This document shows positions 1 through 49,856 of a stretch of 64,000 nt of DNA, piece by piece; positions within the stretch are counted from its first letter, which is position 1; every line of letters begins with the position of its first letter. The translations under genes were made by a program, and so were the position numbers. The notes below the pieces were generated by a model. It saw only the letters and a list, made by a program, of their open reading frames with translations, was not told the origin of the DNA and searched no databases. The DNA comes from an uncultured Candidatus Saccharibacteria bacterium. Lineage in GTDB: Bacteria > Patescibacteriota > Saccharimonadia > Saccharimonadales > JAGQNJ01. The stretch is taken from assembly GCA_965231045.1 (NCBI GenBank), contig OZ246406.1, positions 116,295 through 180,294 on the forward strand. Direction: 5' to 3'.

Positions 1-498
1 CCTGAGATTTCAGAAGCAACAGTGAGTTTACCCCTGATCAATCGTCGACCAATTGTATACATTCAGATCACACAGCCAGTTTTCTTCCTTAACAAAGGTA
101 ATGAAATTTTTGCTATTGATCAACAGGGAAGAGTAATTATGAAAGGCGATGCTAACCTCCCGAAATCTAATCTGATACACATTGAAGACCAAACATCACA
201 AGCCGTAGAAGTTAGTAAGCCGTTTTTGCCTGCTCGACAAGTAAAATTCATGCAAGACATAGCTGCTCAGTTAAAAAACAAGGGAATTACGGACATATCC
301 TTTGTCTTACCACCCTTGCCAGACGTCGTTTACGTCAAAATAAAAGATAGGCCCTATTTGGTAAAAATGACGTTCCAGAACGACCCTAGATTACAGGCAG
401 GCACCTTCTTAGCCGTTAAAGACAAGCTTGAAGCCGATAAGATTACCCCAGCTGAATATATAGATGTTCGTGTTGACGAACGAGCTTACTATAAGTAG
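1..498 (+). CDS. ftsQ: FtsQ/DivIB-like cell division protein, C-terminal part (5' end lies outside the window)
   Basis: Frame 1 is open from base 1, with no stop before the GTG at 22. The C-terminal domain ends in ...AEYIDVRVDERAYYK, which resembles FtsQ/DivIB C-termini. The call rests on motif memory only. Confidence 0.55.
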   Translation, partial: PEISEATVSLPLINRRPIVYIQITQPVFFLNKGNEIFAIDQQGRVIMKGDANLPKSNLIHIEDQTSQAVEVSKPFLPARQVKFMQDIAAQLKNKGITDISFVLPPLPDVVYVKIKDRPYLVKMTFQNDPRLQAGTFLAVKDKLEADKITPAEYIDVRVDERAYYK

Positions 499-639
499 TA
501 GGGTAGGCTAGGCTAAGCTAAGGAACAACTAGACTTATACCTAAAAGTTTATTGACAGCAATACACCCTTGGGCGCTCTGAGTTCATGTGATGAATAAGT
601 ACTGATAGATTAACAGCACTTCTTTCACTCTCCCCTAGA

Positions 640-655
640 TGTTCGCAAAATGTTC
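640..655 (+). repeat. Copy 1 of a perfect 16-nt direct repeat, TGTTCGCAAAATGTTC
   Basis: The exact 16-mer recurs at 1195-1210. Both copies lie in the same 730-bp non-coding gap. Confidence 0.9.
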
Positions 656-1194
656 ATACATCGCTAATACTGTATTTGCAGAAAAACATATAAAAATACC
701 AAAACCGTGAAAAAGCAAATTTTTCGTGAAATATAGGAAGTGAAGGGGAAATACAAAAAACAATATAAAGCGACATAAAAGTCAAATATTGCAAACACAT
801 CGGCTGTGGAAAACATATTGTGGTAAATTTTGCAAATAGCGACATTGAAGTACGAGAGTAATAAATAGCACATATGCGATTGTGGCACATAAGCATAGTT
901 AGTGCAGTAGTAAATTGAAAAGTCATGCACAATTAACTAAAAACATCAAAAACTCCCCTGTTAGGAAGGTATACACACTTAACCTTAAGAACTAATATAC
1001 GAGTCGCAAAATATACATTGTGCGACGTAAGATCTATGAACCAATATGTCGTCTGCTCCACATGTTTTGAAGCGTATTTTTGTATTTGTATTTTTCAAAT
1101 TTTGTTTTTGATTTTTATTTTCCTACTACTCTACTGTGTTTTCTGCCCAACACGTTAATACCATTATCCTGCTACTACCACTATGTATATATCG

Positions 1195-1224
1195 TGTTCG
1201 CAAAATGTTCGATATTGGTTAAAT
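1195..1224 (+). other. Copy 2 of the 16-nt repeat, extended into a dif-like candidate Xer site (TGTTCGCAAAA-TGTTCGAT-ATTGGTTAAAT)
   Basis: The left arm matches the E. coli dif XerC arm GGTGCGCATAA at 8 of 11 positions. The outer right arm GTTAAAT is identical to the dif XerD-arm end. The central region would be 8 nt rather than 6. The site lies at a convergent strand switch. Confidence 0.35.
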
Positions 1225-1230
1225 TGAGTT

Positions 1231-3170: not shown

Positions 3171-3581
3171 CTAGCTTTGGTGGTTGGCCGTGTAGTAGTT
3201 AAGATAGGCCAATGTATTTCTGCTTCCATAGTCGCCTCGACTTTTGACAGTTACCGCATCAGACCCAAAAACTTCAGTTATCGAGTCAAGTGAGGTCCTT
3301 GATATGATGCAGGCAGTAATTAATTCAGCTTGTACTTCTTCTGCCAAACCAAGGGCTGATCTAAGAAGTAATTTCCCAAGTCCCTTTCTTGGCACTGCAG
3401 AATAATACATCTCAATATCAAAAATGTCAGTTACATTGTCAAAGCTTGCCTCAAGAAATCCAAGCTGATGATCCAATTCGACAAAATAACCAATAATATC
3501 ATTGACGTCTCGTTTAACATGCACGCCTACTTGCGCCAATGATTCCATAGGGACTAAAGCCATAAGGTAATATAATACCAC
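3171..3581 (-). CDS. GNAT-like acetyltransferase (putative)
   Basis: 136-aa ORF. The segment PRKGLGKLLLRSAL resembles the acetyl-CoA binding motif A (R/Q-x-x-G-x-G/A). The true start may be an internal Met. Confidence 0.4.
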   Translation of the reverse strand: MVLYYLMALVPMESLAQVGVHVKRDVNDIIGYFVELDHQLGFLEASFDNVTDIFDIEMYYSAVPRKGLGKLLLRSALGLAEEVQAELITACIISRTSLDSITEVFGSDAVTVKSRGDYGSRNTLAYLNYYTANHQS

Positions 3582-6810: not shown

Positions 6811-6844
6811 TAGTTTTAATATACCACAATTTTATTTTTTAGTA

Positions 6845-6873
6845 TTGACATAACGTAACATTCTTGCTAAAAT
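6845..6873 (+). promoter_or_regulatory. Sigma70-type promoter: TTGACA, 17-nt spacer, TGcTAAAAT (extended -10)
   Basis: TTGACA at 6845-6850 and TAAAAT at 6868-6873, with a TG at -15/-14. No ORF follows; the structured RNA candidate does. Confidence 0.55.
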
Positions 6874-6879
6874 TGCAAC

Positions 6880-7205
6880 TCGTAAGTCCGCTTAAGCGGT
6901 TTCTTACGCACCTTTATCCCCCATTCTAACCTCTCAAGAAGTAATTCTTGGGAATCGTTAGGTTGTTTTAGAGCGCGCTAGTAAGTTGTTACCCTCCACT
7001 TACTCTTAGCATCTCCTTTATTGGAAACGCTCTAAAACAGACTAACCCCTTTAACTACCCGGTTTTTCAATAGCGAGTACGCCAGTATGGACACTTGTCC
7101 GGCACAGGTCTTTACGTGGAGTTTGACCCAGATGCTTCGCTCGTGGTGGGTTGAAGGGTGTAATAGGCCTCAAGTGGTGCCCACCCCCTCTTGAGGTCTT
7201 TTATA
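6880..7205 (+). ncRNA. Unclassified structured RNA candidate (~325 nt)
   Basis: No ORF on either strand. The region is bracketed by a promoter and a terminator. Visible helices are a hairpin at 6881-6908, a 9-bp stem with a GUAA tetraloop at 6932-6953, a 19-bp helix (6957-6975 pairing with 7028-7046, one mismatch and one G-U) enclosing a nested hairpin at 6977-7010, and a GGAC-ACUU-GUCC hairpin near 7100. Confidence 0.5.
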
Positions 7206-7208
7206 TTT
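7166..7208 (+). terminator. Intrinsic terminator of the RNA candidate
   Basis: GGCCTCAAG (7166-7174) pairs with CTTGAGGTC (7190-7198) and is followed by TTTTATATTT. A T-run follows the hairpin only on the + strand. Confidence 0.5.
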
Positions 7209-7292
7209 GTCCTCATTTTATACACACCTCTGTTGACAGCTGGATGTATTAAACATACCATTTAGTCATAAACATAAGCAGGATAAGTAAAC

Positions 7293-8066
7293 ATGAAAAA
7301 ATTAGACCAAAGAGGCTCCCATGCGCTGGTAGTCGTTTTAATTGTTGTAGTGGTTGCCGTTGTTGGTGCCGTCGGGTGGTATGTGTTTAATAAGCAAAAG
7401 AAAAGCACTAACGGGTCTGTAACAGATTTAGTTAAACAGTCGGCGACTAAGTGTGACTCCGAAGATAAGGATATTTGTAAGTTTTTTGCTAGCTGGAAAG
7501 ATAATAAATACTACTCGGTTGATACAACGACCACAGCTGCTGGTCAGACCTCAACAATGAAAATGCAGTACGTAGCAACAGATAAATATCACTTTGTTAC
7601 TACTGGCGAAGGTGCCATGGAAATAATTACCATCGGCAACGATACCTATACAAAGTCTGGTGATACTTGGTATAAGCAGACCCAGAAAAAGGACGATACT
7701 ACAACAAAGCTTAAGGACGAAACTACAACTGACTTTAAGGAACCAACAACAGATCAGGCGTCAACACAGGCACCTACCTATAAGCTTATTGGTAAAGAAG
7801 CTTGCGGCAAGCTTACTTGTTTCAAATACCAAGTGGTAGACCCTAATGCCAAAGATACTACTGAATATATATGGTTTGATACAAAAGATTACCAATTACG
7901 CAAAGAAAGCACTCAGACTGGCGACACTAAGAGTGAATCAACTTTCAGCTATGACAAAGTCGAAATCAACGTCCCTTCACCTGTAAAAGAGCTTGGTCCA
8001 AACCAAGTTGTTGTACCAGGACAAGGTGTTGTTGATCTGCCAAGCGCAGCTGATGTTACGCAGTAA
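7293..8066 (+). CDS. Membrane-anchored or secreted hypothetical protein, Thr-rich
   Basis: 257 aa with an N-terminal TM/signal anchor (ALVVVLIVVVVAVVGAVGWYVF). It has its own TTGACA-17-TACCAT promoter-like pair at 7233-7261. Confidence 0.6.
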   Translation: MKKLDQRGSHALVVVLIVVVVAVVGAVGWYVFNKQKKSTNGSVTDLVKQSATKCDSEDKDICKFFASWKDNKYYSVDTTTTAAGQTSTMKMQYVATDKYHFVTTGEGAMEIITIGNDTYTKSGDTWYKQTQKKDDTTTKLKDETTTDFKEPTTDQASTQAPTYKLIGKEACGKLTCFKYQVVDPNAKDTTEYIWFDTKDYQLRKESTQTGDTKSESTFSYDKVEINVPSPVKELGPNQVVVPGQGVVDLPSAADVTQ

Positions 8067-8097: not shown

Positions 8098-8736
8098 TCA
8101 AACAATGAATGAGCGGGTTTCAACAACCAGCTCATTCTTGTATATGTAATCAGTCAATATATTAATTGTTTCTCTTTGGAGCTTAGAAAACTGATCTCGT
8201 TCCTCTTTTGAAAACTTGGCCAACACAAAGTCGGCACTGTCAATTTTATCGCTTAATTCGTTTCGAATCCCCACACGTACTCGATTAAAATTTTCACCAA
8301 TATGTTGGATTACTGATTTAATACCGTTATTACCTGCTGCTCCGCCGCCAATACGGGTTCGAATCTGTCCAAATGGAACATCTAGCTCATCATGAACCAC
8401 AAGTGTCTGTTCGGGGATAATCTTGTAAAAGCCTTGTACGGCCTGTACGGCCTTGCCGCTGTTGTTCATGAGTGTCGTGGGCTTTATGGCGATTACGCGT
8501 GTATCTCCTAATCTGAGGCTTGTAATGTGGCTGGAGAGGTCTTTTTTTTCGTGCCAGGCCGGAAACTCCTGTTGCTTGGTAAAGGCGTCTATAAGCTCAA
8601 AGCCAATGTTATGCCTTGTGCCTTCAAACTCTTTACCAATATTTCCTAAGCCAACTAGTAAAATGGTTTTCTCGGAACCTAAGGTAAATAAGGGCGAATG
8701 AGTCCCTGTTTCATTTTTCTTAACGAATAAACCCAT
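8098..8736 (-). CDS. pth: Peptidyl-tRNA hydrolase
   Basis: LLVGLGNIGKEFEGTRHNIGF is the canonical Pth N-terminal motif. About 24 extra N-terminal residues mean the start is uncertain. Confidence 0.92.
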   Translation of the reverse strand: MGLFVKKNETGTHSPLFTLGSEKTILLVGLGNIGKEFEGTRHNIGFELIDAFTKQQEFPAWHEKKDLSSHITSLRLGDTRVIAIKPTTLMNNSGKAVQAVQGFYKIIPEQTLVVHDELDVPFGQIRTRIGGGAAGNNGIKSVIQHIGENFNRVRVGIRNELSDKIDSADFVLAKFSKEERDQFSKLQRETINILTDYIYKNELVVETRSFIV

Positions 8737-8749
8737 GAATATTAGTGTA

Positions 8750-10063
8750 TCAACTTTTTTCGATGAACCAGAACTTTATCGGTGTTCCGATAAGGTCATA
8801 TTTTTCGCGTAGACTGCGCTCCATAAAGCGCTTATAACTCCAGTGCATTAGCTTAGTATGTGAGCCAAACACTTTGAAGCTTGGTGTTGGGTTGTCATCT
8901 TCCTGAACTATATAGCGTAGCTTAGGCATGGTGTTTTTAAGCCCAGCTGGTGGGTGGGCATCGATAACTGTTTTAAGCCAACGGTTTAATTCTGGGGTAG
9001 CAATTTTTTGCTTACGTCGCTTAGATATTTCGAGCACAAGGTCGAATAGTTTGGCTACGTTTTGGCCGGTAACTGAGCTAGTAAAAATCAGTGGTGCCCA
9101 TGGTACAAAGATAAAATTATGTTGTATTTGAGGTGCCAGTTGATCACGAGTGAAGGCATCCTTATCTAGAGAATCCCATTTACTAACGACCAGTACCAGT
9201 CCCTTCCCTGACTCTTTAATCATGCCGGCAATTTTTTGATCTAGCTGAACATTGAGTTCATTGGCATCCATAAGTAAAAAACAGATGTCGGCCTGCTCGA
9301 TAGCGCTAAGGCTGCGTATGACGCTGAACTTCTCTACCCCCTGCTCTATCTTGCCACTGCGACGGATACCAGCCGTGTCCATAAGCTCAATCTCTTGCCC
9401 ATTGTATTTAACGACAGTTCGGTTAATATCACGTGTTGTTCCGGCCTTATCGGCCACGATAGCCTGCTGCTTTTTAGCTAAAGTGTTAAACAGATGTGAT
9501 TTACCTACGTTTGGTCGACCGAGCAACGCTACGCGAATACGGTTATCATCTTCTTTTAGCTGTTGTTTTGGAATATCATCAACGACTTTATCTAGTAGCT
9601 CGTCAATACCCCGATTTTGTGAAGCGGTGGTTAGAAAGATATCTTTTATGCCAAGTCGGCGAAAATCATCGACGGTAGCTTTGGGCGCTTTATCGGCTTT
9701 GTTCACGACTAAGATAACTGGCTTCTTGCTTTTAAGGGCAAGCTTGGCGACTCGACGATCTTCTTCGGTGATTGCTACATTTGCCTCTATGACAACCCAG
9801 ATAATATCCGCACTATCAGCAGCTTGAGTTATTTGTTCTTGAATAGTGAATTCAAAGTCGTCCTCTGGGTCTTTCATCCCGGCTGTGTCAACAAGCCAAA
9901 AATCATGATGACTCCAGGTGGCTTTGGCTACAATGCTGTCTCTGGTTGTACCAGGCTCATTAGCCACAATTGCCTCCCGCCTACGCAGGACAGAATTAAA
10001 AAGGCTCGATTTACCAACATTGGCTCGGCCCACAATTGCAACGATCGGAAGTTTGTTATTCAT
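8750..10063 (-). CDS. der: Ribosome-associated GTPase Der/EngA
   Basis: Two tandem GTPase domains (GRANVGKSSLFN...DTAG and GRPNVGKSHLFN...DTAG, each with NKxD/SKWD) plus a C-terminal KH-like domain. Confidence 0.96.
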   Translation of the reverse strand: MNNKLPIVAIVGRANVGKSSLFNSVLRRREAIVANEPGTTRDSIVAKATWSHHDFWLVDTAGMKDPEDDFEFTIQEQITQAADSADIIWVVIEANVAITEEDRRVAKLALKSKKPVILVVNKADKAPKATVDDFRRLGIKDIFLTTASQNRGIDELLDKVVDDIPKQQLKEDDNRIRVALLGRPNVGKSHLFNTLAKKQQAIVADKAGTTRDINRTVVKYNGQEIELMDTAGIRRSGKIEQGVEKFSVIRSLSAIEQADICFLLMDANELNVQLDQKIAGMIKESGKGLVLVVSKWDSLDKDAFTRDQLAPQIQHNFIFVPWAPLIFTSSVTGQNVAKLFDLVLEISKRRKQKIATPELNRWLKTVIDAHPPAGLKNTMPKLRYIVQEDDNPTPSFKVFGSHTKLMHWSYKRFMERSLREKYDLIGTPIKFWFIEKS

Positions 10064-10110
10064 TTGAGATTATTATAACAGAGGTAGAGGCGCTTGACAA
10101 CGCATAATTT

Positions 10111-10758
10111 TTATTTTACTGTTTTGAACTTTCCTGATTTTAAGTCGCCCAGGCTGTATTCGCCAAAGTTTGTGCGGTGGAGTTTGTTTACTTTGTAGCC
10201 AAGAGCTGCAAAAGTTCGGCGGATTTGGCGATTCCGCCCCTCACTCATGGTCACTTGCCAATGCTCCCCCGCTCCATCAAGTTTTAATTTGCTCGGCCCA
10301 TCTTCTAGCTCGATCCCATTTTCAATAACTTGTTTGTCAGTGGTTGTTAATTTCTTGTCGAGCATGATTTCATAAATTTTGTTTTTACGGTATTTAGGAT
10401 GTGTAAGTTCATTGGCGTATCGGCCGTCATTGGTTAGCAGCAGTAGACCTGAGGAGTCTTTATCTAGCCGCCCGACAGGTTTTAAATTGTGAAGTTCATT
10501 TGGCAAAAGTTCATAAATTGTCTTGCTGCCCTGACCTTCTCTGGAACAAACGTAGCCCACAGGTTTATTGAGCAGTATTGTTACGATTCCCATCTGGGTT
10601 ATAGGTTTGTTGTCAATCAGAACTAAATCATTCTCCTGAACAATATCACCTAATTTTGCTGGTGCTTTATTTATACTAACTCGCCCGGCTTCAATTACCT
10701 TATCTGCTGCTCGGCGTGAAATGCCTGTTGCTAAAGCAATATATTGGTTAATACGCAT
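10111..10758 (-). CDS. Pseudouridine synthase, RsuA/RluB family
   Basis: N-terminal S4 domain (MRINQYIALATGISRRAADKVI) and the catalytic motif GRLDKDSSGLLLLTNDG. Confidence 0.88.
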   Translation of the reverse strand: MRINQYIALATGISRRAADKVIEAGRVSINKAPAKLGDIVQENDLVLIDNKPITQMGIVTILLNKPVGYVCSREGQGSKTIYELLPNELHNLKPVGRLDKDSSGLLLLTNDGRYANELTHPKYRKNKIYEIMLDKKLTTTDKQVIENGIELEDGPSKLKLDGAGEHWQVTMSEGRNRQIRRTFAALGYKVNKLHRTNFGEYSLGDLKSGKFKTVK

Positions 10759-48163: not shown

Positions 48164-49182
48164 GTGTTTAGGGGCAATCTTAGAATAAACGTTGACCCGT
48201 GATTCACTTTACTTTTGACTTCAATGCTACCATCATGAAGCTCAATAATGTTTTTGGCGATCGAAAGTCCCAGGCCATGCCCCTCATTATGTTGCTTGCT
48301 GCGAGCTGAATCAGCTCTATAGAAACGCTCAAAAATATGACTTAATTCGGATGGTTTGATCCCGATCCCCTGGTCTATGACGTCAATCCTGACATCACTT
48401 TTAGTAAGCTGGAGCTTAACTTCGATTGATGAATTTTTAGGGCTGTACTTGATTGCATTATCAACAAGAATGGTAATTACCTCAATGATACTCGCTCTAT
48501 CAACGAGAACCATGGCATCGTTTGGTAGGGTTGTAATAATCTTTAAGTTTTTCGTTTTAGCTAAGGCTTTCGCTCGATCGGTTGATTCTAGAATCATTTT
48601 CTTCAAAGAAGCTGGTTTTTTCTCGATTGAGTCATTTTCTAGACTGGCCAGTTTTAGAAGGCCTTCTGATAGAGCAGTTAAGCGTGCCAATTCTTCTAGA
48701 TTACTCTTAAGCTGCTGTTTGGCTTGCTTTAGAGTAAGGTTAGGGTTCATGAGTGTAACCTCAATTTCAGTTTGCATAGCGGCAATTGGTGTCCGGAGTT
48801 CATGGCTAGCATCTGCAGTAAATCTTTCAAGCGCTTCATGAGACTCTTCGATCGGCCGTAAGGTTCGTCGCGCCAGGTAATAGCTCAAAAAGTAACCACC
48901 AACCAAGATAAATACATTAGTTAGTATTAACCTGCCTAAAATGTGTGCTCGAGCTTCGTTGAGTTCAAGTAAGCGATCATTAGTAAATTGATTAAGTGTA
49001 TCAAGTGGTATTGCCCCACCTGGCAATCTATCAATAAATACTCCTTGACGACGAAAACCACGATTTAGTTCTTGTACGGAAACACTATACAAATTAATAC
49101 TGAAGAATATGCTTATAGCCATCATTATTGATAAGTAAACGGCGGTAAGCTTGGTAGATGTTTTATGAAAAATTAGATTCAC
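48160..49182 (-). CDS. Sensor histidine kinase
   Basis: 2 TM segments, H-box FTADASHELRTPI, N-box LVDNAIKYS, and G-boxes DQGIGI and GHGLGLS. 4-nt overlap with the response regulator gene. Confidence 0.9.
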   Translation of the reverse strand: MNLIFHKTSTKLTAVYLSIMMAISIFFSINLYSVSVQELNRGFRRQGVFIDRLPGGAIPLDTLNQFTNDRLLELNEARAHILGRLILTNVFILVGGYFLSYYLARRTLRPIEESHEALERFTADASHELRTPIAAMQTEIEVTLMNPNLTLKQAKQQLKSNLEELARLTALSEGLLKLASLENDSIEKKPASLKKMILESTDRAKALAKTKNLKIITTLPNDAMVLVDRASIIEVITILVDNAIKYSPKNSSIEVKLQLTKSDVRIDVIDQGIGIKPSELSHIFERFYRADSARSKQHNEGHGLGLSIAKNIIELHDGSIEVKSKVNHGSTFILRLPLNT

Positions 49183-49856
49183 TTTTTGACCCCAAAGTAA
49201 TATCCAAAGCCCCGACGGGTGTGAATTAACTGAGTTTTAAATGGTTTATCAATTTTATTTCGCAAGTAGCCTATGTAGACTTCGATGGTGTTTGGTAATA
49301 TCTCTGAATCATAGTCCCAAACATGTTGCATTAGCGTATCTTTGGTTAGTATTTGTTCGGCATGTGTCATTAAGTATTCAAGGAGCGCAAACTCCTTGGC
49401 CGTTAGTTCGATTGACTTACCGGCTCTAGTAACGCTAAGACTCTTTGAGTCTAGGACTAGATTATCGTATTCAAGAATGTCGGTCTTACTTTGTTGTGGG
49501 CGACGCAGTAATGCCCTAACGCGAGCGACTAGTTCGACAAAAGCGAAAGGCTTAACTAAATAGTCATCGGCACCACTATTCAGCCCATGAGCGCGATCAA
49601 GCACTTTATCTTTAGCAGTTAAAAGCAGGATTGGCATATGTAATTTTTGGTCCCGAACGTTCTTAAGAATACCTATGCCATCAACTGATCCCGGTAGCAT
49701 GCGGTCAAGAATTATTAGATCATACGGCTCATTCAGGGCCATACTCAAACCATCATCGCCATCATATGCCACGTCAACGGCGTATGATTGCTGCTCCAAG
49801 CCTCGCTTGATTGCGTTGGCAATTTTATGTTCATCCTCAACTACGAGTATTCGCAT
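49179..49856 (-). CDS. OmpR/PhoB-family response regulator
   Basis: The receiver is MRILVVEDEHKIA...DLIILDRMLPG. The winged-helix output is LTAKEFALLEYL...VYIGYLRNKID...IHTRRGFGY. Confidence 0.93.
   Translation of the reverse strand: MRILVVEDEHKIANAIKRGLEQQSYAVDVAYDGDDGLSMALNEPYDLIILDRMLPGSVDGIGILKNVRDQKLHMPILLLTAKDKVLDRAHGLNSGADDYLVKPFAFVELVARVRALLRRPQQSKTDILEYDNLVLDSKSLSVTRAGKSIELTAKEFALLEYLMTHAEQILTKDTLMQHVWDYDSEILPNTIEVYIGYLRNKIDKPFKTQLIHTRRGFGYYFGVKK

Follow-up and report, generated by a model that had tools for sequence, protein, structure and literature searches.

A probable dif site with near-palindromic arms, used by inoviruses and set in a conserved flanking module, at the putative replication terminus of a Saccharibacteria chromosome

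In Escherichia coli, the chromosome-dimer-resolution site dif, GGTGCGCATAATGTATATTATGTTAAAT, consists of a 6-bp centre, TGTATA, between the arms GGTGCGCATAA and TTATGTTAAAT, and the XerCD/dif system to which it belongs is marked by this 11-6-11 architecture, by a single copy of the site, by the convergence of genes and a change of GC skew around it, and by octamers of the GGGNAGGG type. Arms of greater symmetry are found in the XerH/difH system of Helicobacter and Campylobacter, the XerS/difSL system of Streptococcus and Lactococcus and the XerA/dif system of archaea, where in some lineages the recombinase gene lies beside the site. Xer sites also serve elements that encode no integrase of their own, the integrative mobile elements exploiting Xer (IMEX), which include CTXphi, VGJphi and TLCphi of Vibrio, Cf/Lf of Xanthomonas and the gonococcal genetic island, and whose attP mimics dif; on plasmids, the sites cer and psi, which use ArgR or ArcA plus PepA, have several hundred bp of conserved flank beside their Xer core. 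To our knowledge, accessory sequences of Xer sites have so far been known only from these two plasmid sites. Here we analyse a non-coding gap (positions 499-1230) in a 64,000-nucleotide stretch, hereafter the window, of contig OZ246406.1 (assembly GCA_965231045.1, positions 116,295 to 180,294) from an uncultured Candidatus Saccharibacteria bacterium. We consider it highly probable (roughly 0.85) that this gap is a dif locus at the replication terminus, with its core at 1001-1028, and we set out below how it compares with the systems just named.

The core has the 11-6-11 layout of an XerCD site, and its arms are near-identical inverted repeats (GTCGYAAAA and GTCGCACAA) that together form an imperfect palindrome, GTCGCA...TGCGAC, spanning 1003-1026. 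Taken from the bottom strand, the sequence is ACGTCGCACAA-TGTATA-TTTTGCGACTC, which means that in the window's clade the centre is that of E. coli dif, and the inner 16 nt match dif at 14 of 16 positions. The near-identity of the inverted arms is nevertheless unlike E. coli dif; it suggests one recombinase and is shared with the more symmetrical sites of the XerH, XerS and XerA systems. The resemblance to these does not extend to the letters, since difH and difSL have no known sequence relationship to the site, and the 6-bp centre contrasts with the longer spacer of difSL. One related site (contig L202, oriented position 455) has perfectly palindromic arms, ACGTCGCACAA-GATATA-TTGTGCGACGT, which is consistent with a single recombinase acting on both. 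An earlier reading of the window made from the letters alone (the sequence-only reading) had placed dif elsewhere, in the second of two 16-nt repeats that flank the palindrome, and had listed the palindrome merely as a partial third copy of that repeat, TCGCAAAAT, at 1004-1012 inside a GTCGCA/TGCGAC hairpin. The partial copy is indeed there; it is the hairpin around it, and not the second repeat, that turns out to be the core.

How well is this core conserved? An unbiased sample is provided by nine syntenic loci spanning a sigma-like gene to ftsQ, which were anchored on TopA in a scan of species-representative genomes and belong to Saccharibacteria metagenome-assembled genomes whose TopA is 61-81% identical to that of the window. 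In eight of the nine, the 24-nt core GTCGCAAAATATACATTGTGCGAC recurs with 0-3 mismatches (24/24 identical in L012, L015, L018 and L021, 23/24 in L035 and L036, 21/24 in L016), and the adjoining bases are unrelated. The 24 nt are likewise identical between the window and L009, a contig whose housekeeping genes are ~92-94% identical to those of the window and which encodes the second homologue of an orphan protein discussed below. A degenerate core pattern, with 21 of the 24 positions fixed, then retrieved 27 contigs from IMG/VR and at least 120 from metagenomes. In 138 non-redundant occurrences among the matches listed, the consensus is RW-GTCGYAAAA / KATAYA / TTGTGCGAC-RY, with variation at two central positions and at a single position of the left arm, and the information content falls to ~0 beyond 28 bp; neither this sharp drop outside the core nor the preference for R or Y at the two outermost positions of each side is built in by the search pattern. 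The sequence-only reading had held that a true dif should be single-copy, and the 28-bp core is: it occurs once in the window at up to five mismatches and once per contig in all 147 matches listed (27 from IMG/VR, at least 120 from metagenomes), including contigs of 830, 914, 637, 609, 473, 354, 346, 336 and 335 kb. The site also occurs with neighbours other than ftsQ, including divergent ones.

The polarity of the surrounding DNA switches at this core. In 153 non-redundant loci among the matches listed, oriented by the asymmetry of the site itself, open reading frames (ORFs) that encode 120 aa or more and lie within 6 kb amount to 234 kb on the plus strand and 43 kb on the minus strand to the left of the site, and to 114 kb and 263 kb, respectively, to its right. 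In the 126 non-viral loci, GC skew changes sign at the site, from values of +0.02 to +0.11 on its left to negative ones on its right, and in the non-coding flanks (350 nt per side) both GC and AT skew fall from ~+0.1 to +0.15 to -0.1 to -0.2; in the window, AT skew flips within the gap near 1020, the plus strand being A-rich to the left and T-rich to the right. The sequence-only reading, which suggested a terminus from the fact that genes on both sides point toward the gap, is thereby supported, in that genes converge on the site and the locus behaves as a terminus/dif region would. Of the octamers of the form G[AG]GNAGGG counted more than 500 bp from the site, 237 point toward it and 22 away. 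An unbiased scan for strand bias returned as its top 8-mers GAGCAGGG (60 toward, 3 away) and GCAGGGGA (55 and 5), and the GGGNAGGG family (125 and 9) and the GAGNAGGG family (112 and 13) correspond to the consensus sequences of the FtsK-orienting polar sequences (KOPS) of E. coli and of the SpoIIIE recognition sequences (SRS) of B. subtilis. By comparison, 1-base variants of these KOPS-like octamers point toward the site in just 55-77% of cases, which is the background set by gene orientation. The polarity holds in loci with ftsQ as neighbour (62:5 on the left, 3:51 on the right) and in other contexts (43:4 and 10:81), and a slightly positive bulk GC skew on the right-hand side does not abolish it. 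In the genome of the window itself, RRGCAGGG is found on the plus strand at -7570, -4415 and -864 (taken from contig L001 and given in window coordinates) and on the minus strand at 2697, 9346, 23535, 31459, 34027, 43713, 46330 and 47214, so that its strand switch brackets the gap; to the right of the site in the window there are eight copies on the minus strand and none on the plus strand, some of them inside plus-strand genes.

Phages have recombined site-specifically within the site. Two contigs of the window's own clade (centre TATACA), L093 with an empty and L051 with an occupied site, are 100% identical in their flanks and differ by a 5.49-kb insert, at both ends of which 19 nt, AATATACATTGTGCGACAT, are duplicated. 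A second, hybrid site is present in eight loci including L051; the inserts of 2.2-5.9 kb all lie to the right of the intact site, and the hybrid sites retain centre and right arm. Six IMG/VR contigs (L057, L059, L063, L065, L066 and L068) share the order murG-ftsQ, full site, 5.1-5.9 kb of small genes and second site, the last having an identical centre and right arm (GATATATTGTGCGAC) and an unrelated left arm, followed by minus-strand host genes. After integration, dif stays on the ftsQ side and the hybrid site marks the opposite end of the insert. Among the insert products are a Zot-like ATPase and a G2P-type rolling-circle Rep (in L051, PF05707 and PF23343, respectively), together with small membrane proteins and one large secreted protein; no integrase gene was found in the inserts examined. 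The circular junction predicted for the L051 phage (attP CAATATCGCAA-TATACA-TTGTGCGACAT, then ACTATAAG) had no match in an exact search; instead, L222, a 5,454-bp contig with Zot and Rep and without ftsQ, supplied a circular relative of the oral phages. It is read as a circular genome because of its 76-nt terminal direct repeat and carries the attP ACAAAATACAA-GATATA-TTGTGCGACAC. In the phage attP, centre and right arm are as in dif and the left arm is degenerate. With the empty site, the occupied site and the circular form all at hand, the insertions follow the IMEX pattern known from CTXphi-like phages, which use the Xer recombinases of their host and in which an integrase-less element with Zot and a rolling-circle Rep comes to lie between an intact dif and a dif/attP hybrid; they differ from the described IMEX in their Patescibacteria hosts and in an attP whose centre and right arm are kept and whose left arm is degenerate. 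Xer-exploiting elements, such as the sequence-only reading had suspected at this locus, do insert here in relatives, the window itself being an empty site with no IMEX present.

Two further observations concern phages at this site. In the integrated oral inoviruses, the first 100-400 bp share 84-95% identity with the host sequence that adjoins dif on the right (L066, 2068-2159 vs 7176-7270; L065, 2493-2572 vs 8360-8442), and this host-like stretch holds a copy of the GTTCG box, the conserved form of the 16-nt repeats described below, and a GGACTAACAG...CTGTTAGTCC hairpin; a portion of the flank of the host dif seems to be duplicated in these phages. In addition, a tailed-phage contig in IMG/VR (L049, 2764-2791, and L061), which encodes a major head protein as well as the small and large terminase subunits, has a full 28-bp site, AAGTCGTAAAAAATATATTGTGCGACGT, between terS and terL, which could be the Xer-dependent attP of a caudovirus.

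In ten loci, the site has on its left, at a distance of 270-980 bp, an Xer-family gene of 309-315 aa that is transcribed away from it, an arrangement that recalls the recombinase genes beside some XerH, XerS and XerA sites. The gene product is 32-35% identical to E. coli XerD (tblastn), its best NCBIfam matches are XerC, XerD and XerA_Arch, and its best match in PDB is XerD (1A0P). Both recombinases tested score below the equivalog cut-offs of the XerC and XerD families (243-260 vs 330-335 bits), and one of the two passes the XerA_Arch cut-off (228.7 vs 220 bits). The XerS hidden Markov model scores far lower (126-130 bits), and in Saccharibacteria the neighbour of the site is ftsQ rather than xer, a further difference from the single-recombinase systems. 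Since the homologues of the site-adjacent recombinase are named Candidatus Shapirobacteria or Patescibacteria group, the same site appears to serve lineages outside Saccharibacteria. To the right of the site, at ~570-610 bp, L043 (a 40.6-kb IMG/VR contig) and L143 have a different ORF, a distant relative of tyrosine recombinases with 27-30% identity to E. coli XerD along 140-170 aa, which could be a phage integrase targeting the same site.

This last observation, together with the site on the tailed-phage contig and the fact that phage integrations are the only recombination events seen directly, could be taken to mean that the palindrome is a mere attB for elements that use some other recombinase and not the dimer-resolution site of the chromosome. 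We regard this as very unlikely. The integrated inoviruses encode no recombinase, and the site is retained in most element-free genomes and beside differing neighbours; its 11-6-11 architecture, its coincidence with the exact switch point of skew and KOPS-like polarity, and the housekeeping-type Xer gene that adjoins it in ten loci also speak against a mere attB.

By analogy with the paradigms of E. coli, Bacillus, XerH and XerS, a dif locus of this kind would work as follows. An Xer-family tyrosine recombinase would bind both arms, and because the arms are almost identical it would probably be one protein on both. After replication, FtsK at the septum would pump DNA toward the site, steered by G[AG]GNAGGG from both replichores, and would trigger strand exchange across the 6-bp centre, by which chromosome dimers would be converted into monomers. 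Integrase-less filamentous phages would then exploit the same reaction through attP.

Several observations weigh against the identification of the gap as a dif locus at the terminus. Of its 28 positions, the site shares only 17 with E. coli dif, and the canonical XerD arm TTATGTTAAAT, a hallmark of E. coli dif, is missing from its right arm. Because the search pattern fixes 21 of the 24 core positions, conservation within the set found with it is in part a matter of construction. The ninth TopA-anchored locus, on scaffold L014, which contains a run of N, has no site at up to five mismatches; in L014 (15800-17000), 4.6 kb separate the sigma-like gene from ftsQ and a GTTCG box is present, and the missing dif could mean that the assembly has a gap there or that the site has diverged. 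Neither the window ORFs scanned nor the 10 kb around the site in Saccharibacteria loci contained a Xer gene, and it is assumed that the gene lies elsewhere in this genome. The word terminus rests on local polarity, over ~74 kb of this genome and the aggregated loci. Finally, the flanks hold features that are odd for a dif, namely the DnaA-box-like TGTGGAWAA, the repeated GAAAAGYCAAAT and the 16-nt repeats, and it is to these flanks (Table 1) that we now turn.

Table 1. Features in and around the gap, with coordinates in the window
Feature	Position	Strand	Remarks
ftsQ, 3' end	22..498	+	ORF; last gene of the division and cell wall (dcw) cluster; conserved left neighbour of the site
C-rich box CACTCTCCCCT	626..636	+	just upstream of the left box; from a 19-sequence alignment of left flanks
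Left GTTCG box (first 16-nt repeat)	640..655	+	exact 16-mer; consensus WGTTCGY-WWWW-TGTTC
Ordered conserved blocks in A/G-rich tract	682..813	+	alignment, oriented k-mer enrichment, position histograms
Block AAAAACATATAAAAATAC	682-699	+	
Block GTGAAAAAGCAAAT	707-720	+	
KOPS-like GTGAAGGG	740-747	+	
Block AAAAGTCAAAT	777-787	+	
DnaA-box-like TGTGGAAAA	805-813	+	
Small hairpin block, CTCCCCT-loop-AGG(G)TAT	953..972	+	~45 nt left of dif; essentially no covariation
Probable dif core	1001..1028	+	left arm GAGTCGCAAAA (1001-1011), centre TATACA (1012-1017), right arm TTGTGCGACGT (1018-1028)
Right-flank features (plus strand T/C-rich)	1056..1148	-	skew and motif histograms
Inverted TGTGGA (TCCACA)	1056-1061	-	
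T-rich tract	~1070-1120		
CTGCCC (GGGCAG on the minus strand)	1143-1148	-	
Right GTTCG box (second 16-nt repeat)	1195..1210	+	20 nt beyond the stop codon of the minus-strand neighbour
Orphan gene, 234 aa	1231..1935	-	variable slot right of dif; 2 homologues only

Chromosomal dif sites are not described with a conserved multi-motif flank of the sort in which this core is set. Between the left repeat and dif, relatives of the window share the order AAAAACTATATAAACATAC, three GAAAAG(T/C)CAAAT repeats, a KOPS-like GCAGGGGAA, CTGTGGAWAAGTCAAAT and a CTCCCCT-loop-AGGGG hairpin. The motif TGTGGAWAA points inward on both sides: in 98 loci it has 38 matches on the plus strand to the left (at -350 to -150) and 13 on the minus strand to the right (at +50 to +250), and none in the opposite orientation. 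It was considered as a KOPS and discarded, as it shows no genome-wide skew (TGTGGA, 129 vs 112).

Might all this belong to an RNA? A non-coding RNA gene or a bidirectional terminator, with the palindrome as an RNA hairpin, would suit the location between convergent genes and the many conserved blocks of the left flank; the palindrome can form a 6+3-bp hairpin in which the C-to-T change of the left arm keeps a G-U pair on the plus strand, and the terminator scan returned one weak terminator-like hairpin on the minus strand at 968-953, the U-tract of which is not kept when relatives are aligned. The gap has no match in Rfam even at E<=10, however, and scans for tRNAs and for promoters returned none in it. 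RNAalifold keeps 12 pairs in two tiny helices, with a covariation term of -0.1, the hairpin at 953-972 being the sole helix retained besides dif itself, and a structured RNA in the left flank was rejected after RNAalifold, run on 12 diverse sequences, gave neither conserved structure nor covariation; the flank blocks are for this reason taken to be sequence motifs, and most likely, as judged from sequence, they are protein-binding sites on DNA. In the core, all 28 positions are constrained, the would-be loop included, and compensatory changes are absent. Nor would an RNA account for a site that is kept among quite different neighbours, even divergent ones, for phage integration with duplication of centre and right arm, or for the convergence of KOPS-like motifs. 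We therefore hold the RNA explanation to be highly improbable.

The two 16-nt repeats, which we call GTTCG boxes after their invariant part, were the starting point of the sequence-only reading. The repeat TGTTCGCAAAATGTTC does occur exactly at 640-655 and 1195-1210, 555 bp apart, two such exact 16-mers in 730 bp being expected by chance with an estimated probability of ~1e-4; there is no further copy in the 64-kb window at up to three mismatches. The box has the sequence WGTTCGYWWWWTGTTC. When relatives were searched with the relaxed pattern GTTCG Y N4 Y G W W Y, matches clustered on the plus strand at -500 to -300 and at +100 to +300 from the site and were rare elsewhere; in the oral clade, the right box is at ~+375 on the minus strand. 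The left box is present in all 55 loci with ftsQ as neighbour (median positions 35 nt past the ftsQ stop codon and 367 nt from dif) and the right box in 42 of 47 (27 on the plus and 15 on the minus strand), compared with a left box in 11 of 66 loci of other contexts. What is invariant is WGTTCG...TGTTC, in which GTTC occurs as two half-sites at a distance of 11 bp, one helical turn, and with an A/T spacer between them; the middle four or five bases are AAAA, TTTT or ATTT. As a consequence of this variation, the likeness of the box to the left arm of dif (TCGCAAAAT) is specific to the lineage of the window and not a selected feature. In L009, the right repeat has two substitutions.

On the sequence-only reading, the 30-mer that begins with the second repeat (TGTTCGCAAAA-TGTTCGAT-ATTGGTTAAAT, 1195-1224) would be dif, the first repeat a degenerate counterpart of it, and the intervening 555 bp what is left of a Xer-dependent insertion. 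The repeats are exact and direct, the left arm of the 30-mer matches E. coli dif at 8 of 11 positions and is joined by GTTAAAT, and Xer-dependent insertions are known at this locus in relatives; letter by letter, the comparison with E. coli dif was correct. As evidence for a dif it is weightless, since the supposed XerD arm ATTGGTTAAAT reads TATAATTCAAATG in L009. Against the model as a whole, this arm is kept in no other relative either, the dif-like CGCAAAA gives way to TTTT or ATTT in relatives, an 8-nt centre is required, and the right box sits on the opposite strand in some clades. Alignment across relatives also does away with the insertion remnant: the 555-bp segment is present in all relatives with ftsQ as neighbour, as the interior of a ~600-bp conserved module with one order (box, blocks, dif, box), and the real insertions lie to the right of the central palindrome, flanked by copies of the palindrome. 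There is very little chance that this account is right, and, on sequence grounds, the GTTCG boxes are neither dif nor insertion scars. About as poorly supported is an oriC-like origin, to which an AT-rich region, TGTGGAAAA at 805-813 (one mismatch from a DnaA box), TGTGGAWAA conserved on both sides and three iteron-like copies of GAAAAGYCAAAT might have pointed, as the gap holds one DnaA box at up to one mismatch (the window 22, against 17.9 expected), other box-like sequences are not kept in L009, the polarity of skew (positive, then negative) and of genes is that of a terminus, KOPS-like motifs run toward the site and not away, neither dnaA nor dnaN lies within the 64 kb, and integrase-less inoviruses integrate here as they do at dif.

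If the gap is a dif locus, what could the GTTCG boxes and the other motifs contribute? Each box lies just past the stop codon of one of the convergent genes, and the boxes thus bracket the ~600-bp conserved non-coding module; at the occupied site of L051, the right box remains with the host flank, beyond the hybrid site. With low confidence, we propose that the boxes are sites for a DNA-binding protein, perhaps an Xer accessory factor or one that insulates dif from transcription. Their 11-bp phasing resembles that of sites for winged-helix proteins of the ArcA/OmpR family (OmpR/PhoB type), an OmpR-type regulator encoded at 49179-49856 of the window being one candidate for the binding protein, and the several hundred bp of conserved flank beside an Xer core recall cer and psi. 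Unlike cer and psi, however, this site is chromosomal, has boxes on both sides, the right one in an orientation that varies between clades, and shows a KOPS polarity that would imply control by FtsK, which cer and psi do not use. A general regulon motif was considered for the box and rejected, the 64 kb containing just two other loose matches, both inside genes; so was a small ORF starting in the left box, the ATG of which is TTG or TAG in relatives. It is conceivable, though we would not call it probable, that dif forms the centre of a dedicated ~600-bp module (boxes, three copies of GAAAAGYCAAAT, TGTGGAWAA, KOPS-like motifs and hairpin) that binds one or more proteins and that phages have partly copied. 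Possible roles of such a module include the control of Xer through accessory sequences, the trapping of replication forks and the shielding of dif from convergent transcription.

The gap is AT-rich (GC 0.29-0.37 vs ~0.42 elsewhere in the window) and, as the sequence-only reading had stated, contains no credible ORF: its ORFs are at most 92 aa long and of low complexity, and their frames are broken by 1-base indels relative to L009. Logan contigs that end inside the gap were considered as a structural variant and dismissed, since each is 100% identical to the window up to its end, as expected of ordinary fragmentation. Nucleotide identity between the window and L009 is ~93% in the core of the gap (~615-1212), ~70% at 510-610 and 86% in ftsQ. 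On the left, the complete 300-aa ftsQ seen in L001 ends the cluster mraZ-rsmH-ftsI-mraY-ftsW-murG-ftsQ, and of the 117 loci with an ORF on the left, 55-58 have an FtsQ homologue in that position. On the right, the genes vary by lineage, which makes of this position a variable slot with many different neighbours. In the window, it is occupied by the orphan gene, with a GC content of 0.48-0.53 vs 0.42 for the genome and 71% nucleotide identity to L009, where its neighbours reach 93-94%; its 234-aa product has just two homologues among 5.8 billion proteins searched and matches no Pfam family. It is followed in order by a sigma70-r4/HARE-HTH gene, topA and dprA.

Three further regions of this genome drew attention in their own right. 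The ~480-bp intergenic region at 6811-7292, between dprA on the minus strand and an ORF on the plus strand (7293-8066), is 100% identical to L009, whereas the flanking genes are 90-93% identical; judging by this, it may harbour a non-coding element under strong constraint, or else divergent promoters. Two small genes without family, of 136 aa (window 3171-3581, minus strand) and 155 aa (L001 19964-20431), have 79% and 62% nucleotide identity to L009 and diverge far faster than their neighbours. Near the far end of the window, a heliorhodopsin-family gene (PF18761; 63271-63924, minus strand; equivalent in L038 at 9599-10366) adjoins genes for LysM/CHAP, MFS, trehalose-phosphate synthase and IMP dehydrogenase proteins.

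Our full-text search of the literature found no paper that joins Saccharibacteria or Patescibacteria with dif, Xer or dimer resolution, and no description of Xer-exploiting elements in Patescibacteria. Prophages of oral TM7, some of them found with an inovirus detector, have already been reported, and no insertion at dif is described there (PMC7739484). What would be new here is thus a dif/Xer system of Patescibacteria, predicted from its sequence, with near-palindromic arms, exploited by inoviruses and accompanied in Saccharibacteria by an unusual flanking module. Patescibacteria (the candidate phyla radiation, CPR) make up a very large and mostly uncultured share of bacterial diversity and have tiny genomes. 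In these, a 28-bp dif with KOPS-like polarity would mark the terminus, by which CPR genomes from metagenomes could be oriented or closed and assemblies checked, and the same mark would serve estimates of growth from origin-to-terminus coverage. The attachment site of CPR inoviruses would tie small 'viral' contigs to their hosts and allow prophage to be separated from host DNA. The near-palindromic arms and, in some lineages, the neighbouring xer gene suggest a system with a single recombinase, intermediate between XerCD and XerA, and the conserved flanking module with its 16-nt repeats, unusual for a chromosomal dif, hints at a possible new accessory factor.

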